DNA from: an uncultured bacterium
Lineage (GTDB): Bacteria; Patescibacteriota; Minisyncoccia; UBA6257; 2-01-FULL-56-20
Direction of reading: 5' to 3'
Assembly (NCBI GenBank): GCA_963844965.1
Contig: CAWJQC010000005.1
Span: 1-13,233 of the forward strand
DNA length: 13,233 bases
Shown: piece after piece, positions 2 through 9,580 of the stretch
How the letters are laid out: the number at the start of each line of letters is the position of its first letter
How positions within the stretch are numbered: position 1 is the first letter of the stretch
Made by a program: the position numbers and the translations under genes
The notes under the pieces: model-generated
What the model saw: the letters and a program-made list of their open reading frames with translations, nothing else
The model's database searches: none
What the model was told of the DNA's origin: nothing

Positions 2-1261
2 ACGAAAGAGGAATTGGAAAAATACTTGAAGCTTGTTGAAGAAGCGCAAAAACGCGACCACAGAAAACTGGGTAAACGTCTTGACTTGTTTACTTTTTCA
101 GATATGGTCGGCAGCGGTCTCCCGCTTTGGACACCGAGAGGAGCTCTGGTCCGGGGATTGTTGAATGAATATGTAGAATCGCTACAAGCAAAAGCCGGAT
201 ATACCCAAGTTTGGACGCCGCAGATCGCGAAAGCGGAACTTTTCAAAACATCCGGCCACTACGATAAATACCGGGAAAGCATGTTCCGCGTAAAATCAAA
301 TTACTCCGACGAGGAATTCTTTCTGAAACCCATGAATTGCCCCCAGCACACGCAGTTCTATGCAAGCCAGCCGCGGAGCTACCGCGACTTGCCGCTGCGT
401 TATACCGACTTCGCGATGCTCTACCGCGACGAAAAACCCGGCGAACTGAATGGCCTCGCGCGCGTCAGATCGTTCTCCCAGGATGACTGCCATATTTTCT
501 GCCGCGAAGACCAGGTTGACGAGGAAATTGACGTAGCGCTCGCCATGATAAAGGAAATTATAGGAACTTTCGGCCTCAAGTATCGCTATCGCCTTTCAAC
601 AAGCGACAAGGCGCATCGGGAAAAATATATAGGCGATCCGAAAACGTGGGACAAGCTGGAAAAGTGGGCGGAGGAAATTATGAAACGCAACGGCATTGAA
701 TACTTTGACGGCCCCGGCGAGGCGGCCTTCTACGGACCGAAAATGGACCTCATGGCAACGGATGCTCTTAGCAGGGAGTGGCAGCTCTCAACCGTGCAAA
801 TTGACTTTTTCCTGCCGGAGAGGTTCGGGTTATCGTACATTGACAAGGGAGGAAAAGAAAAACGGCCAGTTATGATCCACCGCGCGATATTGGGCTCGCC
901 CGAACGTTTCATCATGGTGCTTCTGGAGCACTTGGCCGGCGCGCTCCCGCTTTGGCTCGCGCCCACTCAGGCGGAGATCATAAACGTCGGTTCAGACCAA
1001 AGAAAATATGCGGCTAGTATCCACAAACAACTCTCCGACGCCGGCCTGCGCGCGAACCTGAGCGACGAAAATCTTACCGTCGGCAAACGCATCCGCGAAG
1101 CGGAACTTATGAAAATTCCTTACATCCTCGTCGTCGGCGAAAAAGAAGAAAAAAACGGGACGGTTAACGTCCGTCATTATCGCCGCGGGCAGGAGGGAGA
1201 AGTTAAAAGCGAAAAGCTGATTGAAAAGATCAAAAAAGAAATAGAGGATAAGGTCATATAA
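2..1261 (+). CDS. thrS: Threonyl-tRNA synthetase, 5'-truncated by the window edge (catalytic class II core plus anticodon-binding domain)
   Basis: The open frame runs from position 2 with no start codon in the window. The translation contains RDHRKLGKRLDLF, class-II motifs (FRVRSFSQDD.HIF, GPKMD) and a C-terminal anticodon-binding domain (ILVVGEKEE..GTVNVR). TAA stop at 1259-1261. The TTG at 14 in the ORF track is internal, not the true start. Confidence 0.9.
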   Translation, partial: TKEELEKYLKLVEEAQKRDHRKLGKRLDLFTFSDMVGSGLPLWTPRGALVRGLLNEYVESLQAKAGYTQVWTPQIAKAELFKTSGHYDKYRESMFRVKSNYSDEEFFLKPMNCPQHTQFYASQPRSYRDLPLRYTDFAMLYRDEKPGELNGLARVRSFSQDDCHIFCREDQVDEEIDVALAMIKEIIGTFGLKYRYRLSTSDKAHREKYIGDPKTWDKLEKWAEEIMKRNGIEYFDGPGEAAFYGPKMDLMATDALSREWQLSTVQIDFFLPERFGLSYIDKGGKEKRPVMIHRAILGSPERFIMVLLEHLAGALPLWLAPTQAEIINVGSDQRKYAASIHKQLSDAGLRANLSDENLTVGKRIREAELMKIPYILVVGEKEEKNGTVNVRHYRRGQEGEVKSEKLIEKIKKEIEDKVI

Positions 1262-1269
1262 ATTGATTT

Positions 1270-1295
1270 GGGCTCCCCGCGAAAGCAGGGAGCCC
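1270..1295. terminator. GC hairpin immediately after the thrS stop (GGGCTCCC-10 nt loop-GGGAGCCC)
   Basis: Perfect 8-bp inverted repeat at 1270-1277 and 1288-1295, starting 9 nt after the thrS TAA. The following T-tract is weak (ttgaatt), so this may be a weak or bidirectional terminator. Confidence 0.45.
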
Positions 1296-1302
1296 TTGAA
1301 TT

Positions 1303-1354
1303 GGGAGGGGTCGGCGACCGAGCTTAAAGCCCTTCCGCCGACCGCAGACCTCCC
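1303..1354. repeat. Long composite GC-rich stem-loop (GGGAGG-GGTCGGCG ... CGCCGACC-gcaga-CCTCCC)
   Basis: A 6-bp plus 8-bp nested inverted repeat seen directly in the sequence. It lies between the thrS stop and the stop of the minus-strand small gene and forms a second structured element in the convergent junction. Confidence 0.4.
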
Positions 1355-1367
1355 ACTTGATACACAA

Positions 1368-1751
1368 TCACTTAGGCGGCAGAAGTTCTGCCACCGGCCG
1401 GGATAAGGGCTGACCGGCGGAGTTGGTCATCCTTGCAAACCAAAGCCCCCTCTTCCCGTTCCAGCGAAACCCGTCAATGACCGCCCTACCGGACCCGTGC
1501 CGACCCTTGCGGTAGCGGACCGTTGTCCCCTTCCGGATGACGAACTGCTTGTCATCGCTAGGAGGTGGTTCATCGAAATGCGGGCCAGACACTGAATCTC
1601 CGTTTCCGTTTTCTTCCTCCGCAGAGGGGACGGCGAAAATCTCACGCGGGCTCATCCCCACTGACCGACCAAACCGGAGCCAGATGCAAATGAATCCAGC
1701 CAGGATCACAAGGAACGCGATTAAAAAAAACATGGGTGGTACGTTTGGCAT
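1368..1751 (-). CDS. Small membrane-anchored protein, 127 aa (N-terminal TM helix, acidic linker, basic Gly/Arg-rich C-terminus), function unknown
   Basis: ATG at 1751 is preceded by GGAGGT (1763..1758) with a 6-nt spacer. A consensus promoter lies upstream. The N-terminus MPNVPPMFFLIAFLVILAGFICIWL is a hydrophobic helix. TGA stop at 1368-1370 is followed on the minus strand by hairpins. I recognise no homolog. Confidence 0.6.
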   Translation of the reverse strand: MPNVPPMFFLIAFLVILAGFICIWLRFGRSVGMSPREIFAVPSAEEENGNGDSVSGPHFDEPPPSDDKQFVIRKGTTVRYRKGRHGSGRAVIDGFRWNGKRGLWFARMTNSAGQPLSRPVAELLPPK

Positions 1752-1800
1752 GCTCACACCTCCAGAATGGATTTCTCAATAATGCCAGACAACTGTCTCC

Positions 1801-1829
1801 ATTATATACTAACTAAAATAAAATGTCAA
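1801..1829 (-). promoter_or_regulatory. Perfect consensus sigma70 promoter TTGACA-N17-TATAAT on the minus strand, driving the 127-aa gene
   Basis: Minus-strand read: gggcTTGACAttttattttagttagtaTATAATgg. The -35 is at 1829..1824 and the -10 at 1806..1801, with a predicted TSS near 1793 and a 5'UTR of about 40 nt to the SD/ATG. Confidence 0.65.
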
Positions 1830-2014
1830 GCCCACATCCCCTGCCCAAAATAGTGGTCATAGTAGGCCCGACGGCAAGCGGCAAGAGTCGCTCCGACCAT
1901 TTTCTCGGAACCGCGGTCCTTCGGCTCCTGCGGCCAAAGTCCGCTGCTTCTCGGCGTCAAAACTTTTGCCCCGCAAAAGGCCAAACTTTTGACGCCTGCG
2001 AAAGCTTCCTCTAA
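1823..2014 (+). pseudogene. Relic of a MiaA N-terminus (P-loop PKIVVIVGPTASGKSR) without the rest of the enzyme; probably a decayed paralog fragment or leader ORF
   Basis: The first ~20 residues match the MiaA signature GPTASGKS and the true miaA N-terminus (PKIVAIIGPTASGKSK). Many codons differ at synonymous positions. Downstream of the P-loop the translation is unrelated to MiaA. It overlaps the -35 of the divergent promoter. Confidence 0.3.
1953..1996. promoter_or_regulatory. 10-bp-armed palindrome GGCGTCAAAA-N24-TTTTGACGCC with a nested 7-bp hairpin (CTTTTGC-ccc-GCAAAAG); the right arm carries the miaA -35
   Basis: Perfect inverted arms at 1953-1962 and 1987-1996, with an inner hairpin at 1963-1979. 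The direct repeat CAAA(A)CTTTTG occurs twice. Candidate operator or attenuator. Confidence 0.4.
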
Positions 2015-2017
2015 AAT
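1989..2017 (+). promoter_or_regulatory. miaA promoter TTGACG-N17-TAAAAT giving a nearly leaderless mRNA
   Basis: The -35 TTGACG is at 1989-1994 and the -10 TAAAAT at 2012-2017. The predicted TSS near 2024-2025 is only ~7 nt before the ATG at 2032. No SD is present. Confidence 0.5.
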
Positions 2018-2031
2018 AGTCCTCACTTGGA

Positions 2032-3027
2032 ATGATTAAAGCAATACGACCAAAGATCGTTGCAATTATAGGTCCAACTGCATCCGGCAAGAGCAAGCTA
2101 GCCATTAAGCTTGCACACAAATTCGGCGGTGAAATCGTCTCCGCCGATTCGCGCCAGATTTACCGCGGGATGGATATCGGGACTGCCAAGTTACCACTTG
2201 GCAAAATTCCCAATTTCCCCGCCTGCGCCGAGGCTTCGGCGGGCAGGCAATTTCCAATTTCCAAAATTCACCTTATTGACATCAAAAATCCCGACGAAAA
2301 TTATACCGCCGCCGATTACAAAAAGGATGCAATCGCCGCGATACGAAAAATTTTACGCAAGGGCAAACTCCCAATACTCGTAGGCGGCACGGGACTTTAC
2401 GTTAAAGCGGTCACGGATAATTTGGACATTCCCGCGGTCGTGGCCGACGAAAAACTCCGCCGTCGGTTGGAGTCGGAAGCGAAGAAACGCGGCTTGGACT
2501 TCTTGTTCAAAAAACTGGTCAAGCTTGATCCAGAAGCAGCTTATATCGTTGACCCCAAAAATCCGCGGCGCGTGATAAGAGCACTGGAGGTCACCATAAA
2601 AACCGGCAAGCCGTTTTCCGCACAACGAAGAAGGGGCGAGCCGCTTTTCGATTCGTTCATAATCGGCATTAAAACGCCGGGAGGTATGCTCAGTAAAAAA
2701 ATCAACGCGCGTGTGGACGAAATGATCAAAAACGATCTCGTGGGTGAAGCAGAAAATTTGCTGGAAAGATACGGACCAAGTCACAAAGCATTTGATTCCA
2801 TCGGCTACCGCGAGGTTATCCACTATCTGAACGGCGAGCTCGTGCTTGATGAGGCCGTGGAACTAATAAAGAAGAACACCAAAAACTACGCCAAGCGGCA
2901 AATGACGTGGTTCAGAAAAGACAAAAATATCCATTGGGTCGGCGGTGAAAAGGCGGCGTTCGAACTTACGAAAAAATTTCTGATTGGTCAGGGCAGCTGT
3001 AGCTTTTCGCGGAATAGGGTAAAATAA
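2032..3027 (+). CDS. miaA: tRNA dimethylallyltransferase (isopentenyl-tRNA transferase)
   Basis: P-loop IVAIIGPTASGKS, then ADSRQIYRGMDIGTAKLP, HLIDI and LVGGTGLYVKA. TAA stop at 3025-3027. It carries an extra ~13-residue insert between GTAK and HLIDI. Confidence 0.9.
   Translation: MIKAIRPKIVAIIGPTASGKSKLAIKLAHKFGGEIVSADSRQIYRGMDIGTAKLPLGKIPNFPACAEASAGRQFPISKIHLIDIKNPDENYTAADYKKDAIAAIRKILRKGKLPILVGGTGLYVKAVTDNLDIPAVVADEKLRRRLESEAKKRGLDFLFKKLVKLDPEAAYIVDPKNPRRVIRALEVTIKTGKPFSAQRRRGEPLFDSFIIGIKTPGGMLSKKINARVDEMIKNDLVGEAENLLERYGPSHKAFDSIGYREVIHYLNGELVLDEAVELIKKNTKNYAKRQMTWFRKDKNIHWVGGEKAAFELTKKFLIGQGSCSFSRNRVK
2203..2269 (+). repeat. In-frame mini-insert inside miaA: a GC hairpin (2221-2248) flanked by AAAATTCC/CAATTTCC direct repeats
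   Basis: GCCTGC-GCCGA-ggct-TCGGC-gg-GCAGGC forms a stem-loop. CAATTTCC-type repeats lie on both sides. It encodes LPLGKIPNFPACAEASAGRQFPISKIH, which is absent from typical MiaA between GTAKP and HxLIDI. Confidence 0.4.
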
Positions 3028-3031
3028 ATAC

Positions 3032-4064
3032 ATGGCCTCTGGTCGTTTTGAAATCCAATTCTTCGCGGGACTCCTGCTTTTGTCCGCCGCGCTCATGATT
3101 TTTGTTTTTTATCCATGTCTGAACGCGCTTGTCATCGCCATCGCGCTCGCCGTCATTTTCCATCCCATCTATGCGAGACTGCTACGTCTCATGCCGAAAT
3201 GGGAATGGCTTGCCGCCCTGATTACGGTCATGCTAACCATCGCAGTTATTCTCGTTCCGCTCACGATTTTCGGATTCAAAATCTTCGCGGAAGCACAGGC
3301 TCTTTACACGAGCTTTGCCTCGGGCGACAAAGGACCGCTCCTGGAATTTCTCCACGGCAAACTCGCGGAACTTACGCCCGGACTCAATCTAGACCTGACT
3401 CAATACACCCAGCAAATTCTTTCCGCACTGCTTGGAAACCTGGGATTCGATCTTCTCCAGGATCGTCGGCGTCTTCGGTACTTTCCTGCTGGCGCTTTTC
3501 GCTCTGTATTATCTCCTGAAAGACGGCTTGAAACTGAGAAGGGCAATGGTAAAGATCAGCCCGCTTTCGCCTGAGAATTCAGCCGAAATCGTAAATCGCC
3601 TTCAGACGATGACCGGTTCCGTAATTACGGGAACCGTCGCCATGGCTGTCATACACGGAATTCTCGTCGGCCTTGGATTTCTCTTGTTTGGACTTACAAA
3701 CCCGGTACTCTGGGGATTGGTTGCCGTCGTAGCGGCATTTATACCGATAATTGGAACAGCGCTGGTCGTCATCCCCGGAATATTCTGGCTTGTGCTCACA
3801 CAAAATCTCGCCGGAGCGATCGGTCTCGCGCTTTGGGGAATCCTTATGCTCGGGCTCATAGACAACATCCTCAGGCCGCGTTTAATCGAGCGCCGCTCAA
3901 AAGTCCACCCTCTTCTCGTTCTTCTTTCCGTCATCGGCGGCCTCGCGCTTTTCGGCCCGACCGGATTCCTTCTTGGGCCTCTCGTCTTGAGCTTGTTCCT
4001 TGTGCTTCTTGAAATCTATCCGGCGCTCATACTGAAACGCGGCGACAAAACACGGTCCGTCTAG
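3032..4064 (+). CDS. AI-2E family transporter / PerM-like (UPF0118) permease, with an apparent +1 frameshift near 3446
   Basis: Two overlapping ORFs (3032..3574 frame 2; 3432..4064 frame 0) together give a typical ~340-aa multi-TM AI-2E protein. Frame 1 ends its homology at ..LLGNLG. Frame 2 continues SIFSRIVGVFGTFLLALFALYYLLKDG, the family-conserved segment. Skipping one nucleotide after gga (3443-3445) joins them. TAG stop at 4062-4064. Tightly coupled to miaA (4 nt). Confidence 0.75.
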
Positions 4065-4557: not shown

Positions 4558-4597
4558 AAAAACAGCGGCTTAGATGAGCCGCTGTTTTGTTCTTTTT
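4558..4597. terminator. Bidirectional rho-independent terminator between the ATP-cone gene (+) and the M29 peptidase gene (-)
   Basis: AAAACAGCGGC-ttagatga-GCCGCTGTTTT is an 11-bp stem. A T-run (ttgttcttttt) follows on the plus strand. The A-run upstream (tttaaaaa) gives a U-tract for the minus-strand transcript. Confidence 0.7.
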
Positions 4598-9513: not shown

Positions 9514-9554
9514 AAAAATCTTTATTGACAGAAGGCTACTTAATTATAAAAATC

Positions 9555-9573
9555 CCCCGGCTTTCGCCGAGGG
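9555..9573 (-). terminator. Minus-strand terminator hairpin (CCCGGC-tttc-GCCG(A)GGG) followed on the minus strand by AUUUUUAUAAUU
   Basis: This is the reverse-strand hairpin plus U-tract. It lies 8 nt beyond the TAG at 9581-9583, the stop of the alternative-frame C-terminus, and 57 nt beyond the ORF-track stop at 9630. Confidence 0.5.
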
Positions 9574-9580
9574 ATAGGAA

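Follow-up and report, generated by a model that had tools for sequence, protein, structure and literature searches.

A probable rare membrane-protein gene with its own expression signals between thrS and miaA of a Patescibacteria contig

The stretch of DNA analysed here (the window) is a complete contig of 13,233 nt from a bacterium of the Patescibacteria, or Candidate Phyla Radiation (CPR), and the element under study is its interval 1262-1830, which lies between the genes thrS and miaA and contains a 127-aa open reading frame (ORF127). We conclude that this interval is probably an ordinary but very rare minus-strand protein gene together with its own expression signals, and neither an RNA gene nor an obviously foreign insertion. 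We think it very likely that ORF127 is genuine, that it encodes a conserved protein and that it has a promoter of its own, since the gene, its promoter and the hairpin nearest to thrS are conserved in the slot between thrS and miaA of other Patescibacteria. It is, at the same time, a very rare and lineage-restricted gene that belongs to no described family. Its features are as follows.

1824-1829, minus strand: -35 hexamer TTGACA, overlapping the ATG (1823-1825) of a relic miaA start, 'ATGTCAA'
1801-1806, minus strand: -10 hexamer TATAAT, 17-nt spacer from the -35; putative transcription start site (TSS) near 1794
1752-1794, minus strand: short, unstructured 5' untranslated region (UTR), with a Shine-Dalgarno (SD) sequence GGAGG at 1763-1759
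1368-1751, minus strand: coding sequence (CDS) of the 127-aa protein, stop codon included; ATG 1751-1749, stop TGA 1370-1368
1659-1742, minus strand: codons of the N-terminal transmembrane (TM) helix, residues 4-31 in the AlphaFold2 (AF2) model; predicted local distance difference test (pLDDT) of the block up to 88
1551-1658, minus strand: codons of the disordered acidic linker, about residues 32-67; low pLDDT, net charge -6
1383-1550, minus strand: codons of the predicted basic C-terminal small beta-barrel, Tudor/SH3-like, about residues 68-123
1375-1396, either strand: stem-loop 3, within the last codons of the CDS (PVAELLPP); -16 kcal/mol, z -3.3
1303-1354, minus strand: hairpin 2, long and GC-rich, the first after the ORF127 stop; proposed terminator or 3' stabiliser, present in the window only
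1270-1295, minus strand: hairpin 1, conserved, GGGCUCCC...GGGAGCCC, between ORF127 and the thrS stop; proposed bidirectional terminator, better on the ORF127 strand

A conserved coding sequence and its promoter

The near-ideal SD reported in the preliminary description was readily confirmed, GGAGG standing 7 nt before the ATG at 1751; a GTG at 1757, given as an alternative start in the list of open reading frames, is less likely to be used because it adjoins the SD. An exhaustive HMMER scan of 1.84 billion representatives returned one clear homologue of the protein, P0002 (113 aa, E=2.8e-12, 55% identity over residues 51-126), which has the same architecture and a nearly identical C-terminal motif, PLSRPVAEL.PP. 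Its gene lies on a Patescibacteria contig (L161; loci of related Patescibacteria carry L numbers here) in the same slot and orientation as in the window, convergent with thrS and divergent from miaA. Over the C-terminal domain the two genes are identical at 68, 70 and 32% of first, second and third codon positions, respectively (pN 0.31, pS 0.81), which, judged from the sequences, is the signature of purifying selection on the protein. Frame 0 of ORF127 also has the best codon-usage coding score, 0.04, against -0.35 and -0.45 in the other frames.

In L084 and L162-L166 the slot is occupied by a third cluster, comprising P0004, P0006 and P0007 (129-132 aa; 'hypothetical protein' in the annotation). 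These proteins have a TM-plus-basic-tail architecture like that of the window protein and are collinear with its family (hhalign P=0.0026, 28% identity), and dN/dS of their genes between strains is 0.3-0.5. L084, a 412-kb contig, is also the closest syntenic relative of the window downstream of miaA (M29 peptidase 74%, hydrolase 70%). The suggestion that the presence or absence of the segment be compared among related genomes therefore met with a divided answer: the gene occurs in L161 and a very diverged member of the family in L084 and L162-L166, while elsewhere the slot is empty or holds other cargo, a patchy presence among relatives that keep the flanks, as in genomic islands.

Beyond these three clusters the searches were negative. 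With E-value limits of 1 to 10, the window protein matched no family in Pfam-A, NCBIfam, PHROGs, PADLOC or the PDB sequences, in agreement with the first reading, which had recognised no family. Word-indexed searches with the ORF127 protein alone found only the query itself, a profile of the three sequences found no further members in 5.8 billion clusters (as did the searches with a two-sequence profile), and an exact-sequence look-up of the window protein among contigs gave no match. Neither viral contigs nor phage genomes held a relative, and when ORF127 (tblastn) and the DNA from 1262 to 2031 (blastn) were compared with 160 related loci, only miaA P-loop regions matched. The HMMER scan gave one weaker hit as well (E=1.2e-5), to P0003, an 805-aa Ser/Asn-rich protein without a Pfam match in which a domain with a weak likeness to the ORF127 barrel occurs four times.

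The promoter reads TTGACA (1829-1824), 17 nt, TATAAT (1806-1801) on the minus strand, having both hexamers of a sigma-70-type promoter and a spacing within 17 +/- 1. It was rightly described at the outset as matching the consensus at all 12 positions with optimal spacing: no other 12/12 site occurs in the window, and such a match was absent from all 200 dinucleotide-preserving shuffles. A 12/12 promoter with the same 17-nt spacer stands at the same offset in L161 (L161 3253-3281), and L084 has a 10/12 version, TTGACA-17-TATGCT with a TG extension (L084 5955-5983). The accompanying statement that full-consensus promoters are rare was overstated, as 27 perfect TTGACA-N16-18-TATAAT sites occur in 1.39 Mb of sequence (166 related Patescibacteria loci), about 1 per 50 kb, where chance would give about 1 in total. 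Many of the 27 stand in front of genes whose small products are membrane or secreted proteins, and hydrophobic helices at the N-terminus are common among these products. Our search of the literature found nothing on Patescibacteria promoters. Transcription would start near 1794, and the leader of about 42 nt has no significant structure (fold z -0.5); the idea of a regulatory leader or riboswitch was rejected, the 5' UTR being unstructured in the window as well as in L161.

In the window, L161 and L084 the opening bases of a miaA gene (ATGTCAA) are complementary to the -35 hexamer, although in the window the ATG at 1823, earlier taken for the start of miaA, opens a relic of only 22 codons and the intact gene starts at 2032. 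A -35 element placed over the miaA start, with 9-12 of 12 consensus matches, was also found in L033, L039, L046, L095, L102, L106, L107, L141 and L156, and the divergent gene behind it varies among these Patescibacteria loci, encoding mostly small membrane proteins and some soluble ones. This near-consensus divergent promoter at a fixed offset, with a divergent gene that varies, would imply either mutually exclusive occupancy of the miaA start by RNA polymerase or a portable promoter anchored to miaA. ORF127 resembles a standard unit of strong sigma-70 promoter and hairpin terminator in its TTGACA-17-TATAAT, its GGAGG and its GC-rich 3' hairpins between convergent genes, and differs from it in that the -35 is embedded in the first two codons of divergent miaA, an arrangement recurrent across Patescibacteria.

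Downstream hairpins and the predicted protein

The three strong stem-loops noted at first sight were all recovered as inverted repeats (1270-1295, 1303-1354 and 1375-1396). The 106-nt spacer between thrS and ORF127 folds at -51.3 kcal/mol on the plus strand (z -5.3) and at -61.3 kcal/mol on the minus strand (z -7.4), and no shuffled sequence folded as well. Hairpin 2 folds at -36.0 kcal/mol on the minus strand and -29.4 on the plus strand, and is absent from L161. The stem of hairpin 1 is kept at the same place in L161, where it folds at -22.1 kcal/mol (z -5.2) as read on the ORF strand and at -11.5 kcal/mol (z -2.1) as read on the strand of thrS; since G.U pairs of the ORF strand turn into C.A mismatches on the opposite one, the ORF transcript forms the far more stable hairpin. 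An independent function of the stem at 1375-1396 is doubtful, since its sequence is the coding sequence of the best conserved peptide motif and L161 retains the stem only in part.

We propose that the hairpins would end or stabilise the ORF127 mRNA, and would keep its very strong promoter from driving antisense transcription into thrS. A role as terminators appears probable from their position and stability, although, unlike canonical intrinsic terminators, these GC-rich stem-loops have no U-tract directly after the stem, the ORF-strand tails that follow them being AAUUCAAGGG and AAAUCAAUUUAU.

In the AF2 model the full protein consists of a confident helix (residues 4-31), disorder (30-70, with linker pLDDT <50 at residues 30-58 and 65-70) and a beta domain (77-123). 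Modelled alone from the three-sequence alignment, the C-terminal 65 residues reached a pLDDT of 82.8 and a predicted template modelling score (pTM) of 0.64. As modelled, this domain has 4-5 antiparallel strands in about 60 residues and can be superposed on known Tudor/SH3-like small beta-barrels, so that, going by the models, the C-terminal 60 or so residues of the protein are an extremely basic barrel of this class. The domain has a net charge of +12 and a pI of 12.0, and the C-terminal domains of all five slot proteins examined (those of the window, L161 and L084 and two from the L033 slot) range from +7 to +12 with pI 10.8-12.0. The window and L161 proteins have Y80, F95 and W104 in common; the linker has a net charge of -6 in the window, and its acidity is not conserved in L161. 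Both AF2 and the charge analysis agree with the original outline of a small membrane protein with one TM helix, an acidic linker and a basic Gly/Arg/Trp-rich tail.

The likeness to known barrels (the ERCC6L2 Tudor domain 6hq9, the Tudor domains of 53BP1 and of PHF1/PHF19, the Spt5 KOW domain and the SH3-like domain of ribosomal L2) is at the level of the fold only. The window protein has no sequence match to any Pfam Tudor, SH3 or KOW model, it is bacterial, TM-anchored and far more basic, and the fold does not imply methyl-lysine reading. A BFVD fold search likewise returned generic small barrels only. In architecture the protein also resembles YajC, an accessory subunit of the Sec translocon (PF02699): this abundant membrane protein is about 110 aa long and has a single TM helix at its N-terminus ahead of a small beta-rich cytoplasmic domain. 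In charge the two differ greatly. Membership in the YajC family was rejected, as there is no Pfam YajC match, and hhalign to an approximate E. coli YajC sequence aligned only 12 TM residues at a probability of 0.4%.

No charges precede the helix, RFGR follows it directly and the next domain has a net charge of +12; for these reasons an N-out/C-in insertion is predicted, which would put the barrel on the cytoplasmic face of the membrane. There it would bind a polyanion, most likely RNA or DNA and possibly an anionic lipid or a protein partner, and the protein would serve as an abundant membrane tether. We put forward this cytoplasmic tethering function only tentatively, and think it rather less probable than its being something else.

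Several observations weigh against our view of the interval, or against parts of it. The coding score of ORF127 is the lowest among the genes of the window (0.04 against 0.14-0.37 bits per codon), a value that is also consistent with its unusual composition. The family amounts to just three 90%-identity clusters in 5.8e9, and because only these exist the alignment behind the AF2 models is very shallow; furthermore, the L084 ORF was not significant by HMMER alone (E=1.6, for a hidden Markov model of the window and L161 proteins against all ORFs of all loci). The predicted topology derives solely from the positive-inside rule, and a small beta-barrel fold specifies no ligand, polyanion binding having been deduced from charge alone. 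Hairpins 1 and 2, without a canonical U-tract, were not called by the terminator scan, and canonical terminators do occur elsewhere in the window, at 4559-4588 and 9552-9575. Finally, the TSS, the level of expression and termination at the hairpins are all inferred.

Composition, mosaic structure and origin of the locus

The flanking genes and the DNA joining them to the interval have the following layout.

14-1261, plus strand: thrS, with its stop at 1261, convergent with ORF127
950-1261, plus strand: 3' part of thrS, encoding the anticodon-binding domain; of L084/L161-like lineage type, as is the ORF127 block, and different from thrS nt 14-950
1823-1888, plus strand: relic of an ancestral miaA 5' end, MSSPHPLPKIVVIVGPTASGKS; 22 codons, then unrelated sequence
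1889-2031, plus strand: 143-nt spacer, with a hairpin at 1953-1996 and a promoter-like TTGACG-17-TAAAAT at 1989-2017
2032-3027, plus strand: intact miaA (Pfam IPPT E=1.6e-75), 58-60% identical to L081-L084

The interval had been described as a GC-rich island and, from this contrast, as a possible horizontally inserted cassette. The window does have its GC maximum here (a 300-nt stretch from 1301, GC 0.607, +2.8 SD from a mean of 0.500 with SD 0.038), yet values of 0.58-0.59 occur elsewhere, which makes the contrast a real but modest one. The comparison of sliding GC and codon usage proposed earlier gave a mixed result: GC at third codon positions (GC3) of ORF127 is 0.65, close to its neighbours (0.44-0.63 in the other genes of the window), and the coding score is the low one given above. 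The excess sits in GC at second positions (GC2, 0.50) and so reflects the Gly/Arg/Pro/Ala content; the homologous blocks of L161 and L084 likewise lie 2-4 GC points above their own contigs. The GC excess would therefore come from a Gly/Arg/Pro/Ala-rich protein plus the stems and not from a foreign origin, and the compositional case for a foreign cassette is weak. The locus is nevertheless demonstrably mosaic and may have been transferred by recombination.

The mosaic is seen first in thrS, whose product, the threonyl-tRNA synthetase (ThrRS), has its best relatives in Patescibacteria metagenome-assembled genomes at <=73-76% aa identity (<=60% for the window MiaA). Over residues 1-300, ThrRS shares about 80% identity with L001-L007 as against 28-60% with L161 and L084, whereas over residues 301-415 the figures are 40-50% with L001-L007 and 64-88% with L161 and L084. 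In nucleotides, L001/L003-type genomes match the catalytic core (nt 14 to about 950) at 70-80% identity, and the anticodon-binding domain (about 970-1261) is 65-85% identical to the L084/L166/L161 type and only 35-48% to the L001/L003 type. The switch of lineage falls at nt 930-975, in frame, inside an AGALPLWL motif and about 950 nt from the contig end, and reflects either recombination at a domain boundary or an assembly chimera.

The second sign is the miaA relic at 1823-1888, which encodes 17 of 22 amino acids identical to the intact MiaA start of L161 and matched P-loop regions of other miaA genes in blastn. Of its last 42 nt (14 codons) 34 agree with L161 and none of the 8 differences changes an amino acid, so the relic was coding until recently and the truncation is recent. 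From these comparisons an ancestral miaA would have been truncated fairly recently, with another copy taking its place. The spacer that follows the relic has no similarity in any locus; its promoter-like site matches the consensus at 10 of 12 positions and lies upstream of the intact gene. The only repeat at the locus is the diverged pair of miaA 5' copies (29 of 42 nt identical). Tandem duplication was rejected as the source of the two starts, as at their 209-nt offset the likeness ends with the P-loop codons and 13 of 42 nt are different, and an origin of 1889-2031 or of hairpin 2 from a miniature inverted-repeat transposable element or other repeat was rejected because neither has a second copy in the window or the loci.

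One explanation of the mosaic is an assembly artefact, in which the first 950 nt or so come from another Patescibacteria population that co-occurs with this one and were fused to the rest within a stretch conserved in thrS, leaving a native and unremarkable ORF127 locus. The window spans the whole contig, the switch lies close to its end in one of the most conserved thrS motifs, and everything from about 970 onwards fits an L084-like background. On the other side the join is in frame and leaves ThrRS uninterrupted, real recombination mosaics are evident between related strains, and the miaA relic beside a complete miaA is left unexplained; this second join cannot be a k-mer chimera, as it is not at homologous positions. 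We regard an artefact as a real possibility, though not as the more likely outcome.

Alternatively, a block of about 940 nt (about 950-1888) was horizontally transferred into a different Patescibacteria lineage and carried ORF127 with it. Besides the anticodon-binding-domain part of thrS and the hairpins, it would contain ORF127 with its promoter and 22 codons from the start of the donor miaA, having entered through a homologous crossover in the AGALPLWL motif and an illegitimate join upstream of the resident miaA. The lineage switch in thrS fits this account, as do the L161-like relic that was coding until recently, the complete second miaA start 143 nt further on, slot cargo that differs among genomes and the rampant recombination of the clade, visible as 50-100% identity patches between L084 and L166. 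Homology-facilitated illegitimate recombination, which would supply the mechanism, is documented in bacteria (PMC3240628). Compared with that mechanism, and with xenologous gene displacement, as outlined there, one junction here lies in a conserved coding motif of thrS and the other is non-homologous, with a truncated miaA start beside a complete copy, and the roles of donor and recipient and the left junction are only putative.

However, the genes downstream of miaA are syntenic with L084 (57-74% identical), which is itself of the block's own type, and this synteny makes ORF127 more likely native; the foreign or misassembled part may instead be the 5' 950 nt of thrS. GC3 is normal, the GC excess is common to the homologous blocks in other genomes, there is no integrase or transposase, and viral and phage collections contain no relative. 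Nucleotide identity to the relatives nowhere exceeds 80%, which is too distant to orient or date the event. Taken together, these points leave the transfer of such a block unlikely.

The patchwork just mentioned was observed over the 5 kb shared by L084 and L166, in which 100-nt windows alternate between 95-100% and 50-85% nucleotide identity; MiaA is 74.5% identical between the two and ThrRS 95%. In sequence terms this points to extensive recombination or strain-mixed assemblies in the clade. A selective sweep of the cassette was rejected: although dS between strains is 0.075 for the L084-type ORF and 0.37-0.69 for its flanks, the whole region is a 50-100% identity patchwork that is not specific to the ORF.

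The slot itself is variable. Of 81 genome loci, 13 have miaA next after thrS, at a distance of 0-1.7 kb, with no insert in L001, L002, L052 and L075 and other cargo in L003, L004, L032, L033 and L066. The cargo includes a 173-aa multi-TM protein (L003), a miaB-like radical-SAM gene (L032, L066) and three small TM proteins (L033), two of which have basic beta-rich tails and two perfect promoters. Since the cargo varies and close strains show region-wide patchwork identity, recombination at the locus appears to be common. A more far-reaching and quite speculative reading would make the thrS-miaA junction a hot spot of cassette exchange, at which highly expressed small membrane proteins, behind a near-consensus promoter with its -35 embedded in the miaA start (ATGTCAA), are swapped among lineages through recombination at conserved motifs of the flanking genes, both of them tRNA-related housekeeping genes. 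It would place ORF127 in a fast-evolving family of membrane-tethered, basic Tudor-like proteins that includes those of L084 and possibly L033 and binds RNA or DNA at the membrane through its cytoplasmic domain. If this were true, the window would capture one exchange event, with its hybrid ThrRS and miaA 5' relic.

The neighbouring genes are housekeeping genes, with no integrase or transposase nearby. Within miaA, at 2217-2260, GC-rich hairpin-forming DNA (ccccgcctgcgccgaggcttcggcgggcagg) codes for a lineage-specific insertion, PNFPACAEASAGRQFPIS, after the GTAK motif, the point at which L084 MiaA has a different, longer insertion. Behind miaA an AI-2E family transporter (3032-4064) is split into overlapping ORFs, 3032-3574 and 3432-4064, matching Pfam positions 2-131 and 135-326; as read here this is a frameshift, due to a pseudogene or a sequencing error.

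Other readings and the meaning of the family

In the opposite orientation, N-in/C-out, the basic SH3-like barrel would stand on the cell surface and bind polyanions of the cell wall or of a host surface, like SH3b wall-binding domains. Such display would suit the epibiotic lifestyle of Patescibacteria; the fold class includes SH3-like barrels, many genes with perfect promoters in the related loci code for small membrane or secreted proteins, and the cargo of the slot varies and evolves fast, a frequent trait of surface proteins. We nonetheless consider it improbable. No positive residues precede the helix and Arg/Lys follow it directly in the window, L161 and L033 proteins (L084 being ambiguous), there is no n-region of a signal peptide, and a domain of net charge +12 would be hard to translocate. 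No Pfam SH3 family matched at E<=10, and of the extracytoplasmic bacterial SH3b wall-binding domains the Pfam profiles SH3_3, SH3_4 and SH3_5 did not match the window protein, whose charge distribution predicts a cytoplasmic C-terminus.

Last, the earlier alternative of a structured non-coding or cis-regulatory RNA with ORF127 as an incidental frame is already largely refuted and may be set aside as very improbable: the hairpins are dense and their z-scores significant, but no Rfam family matches (in a search at E<=1 the best, BjrC68, scores 19.2 bits against a gathering score of 39, E=0.42, and covers the first hairpin only), third codon positions are saturated while first and second are conserved, the homologue was found at the protein level with the same architecture, the leader is unstructured, two of the hairpins lie 3' of the stop codon in the spacer and the third consists of conserved codons.

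Patescibacteria have small genomes in which unannotated small membrane proteins abound, and some of these proteins probably mediate a host-dependent lifestyle. The family defined here, three clusters among 5.8 billion, adds a Tudor-like basic barrel on a membrane anchor, under purifying selection and with strong, conserved expression signals. Nothing in it is surprising enough to overturn current views. For the evolution of CPR genomes, the hybrid ThrRS, the displaced miaA start, the miaA-embedded promoter and the variable slot may outweigh the gene itself, as these side observations suggest a turnover of gene content at thrS-miaA by recombination within housekeeping genes.

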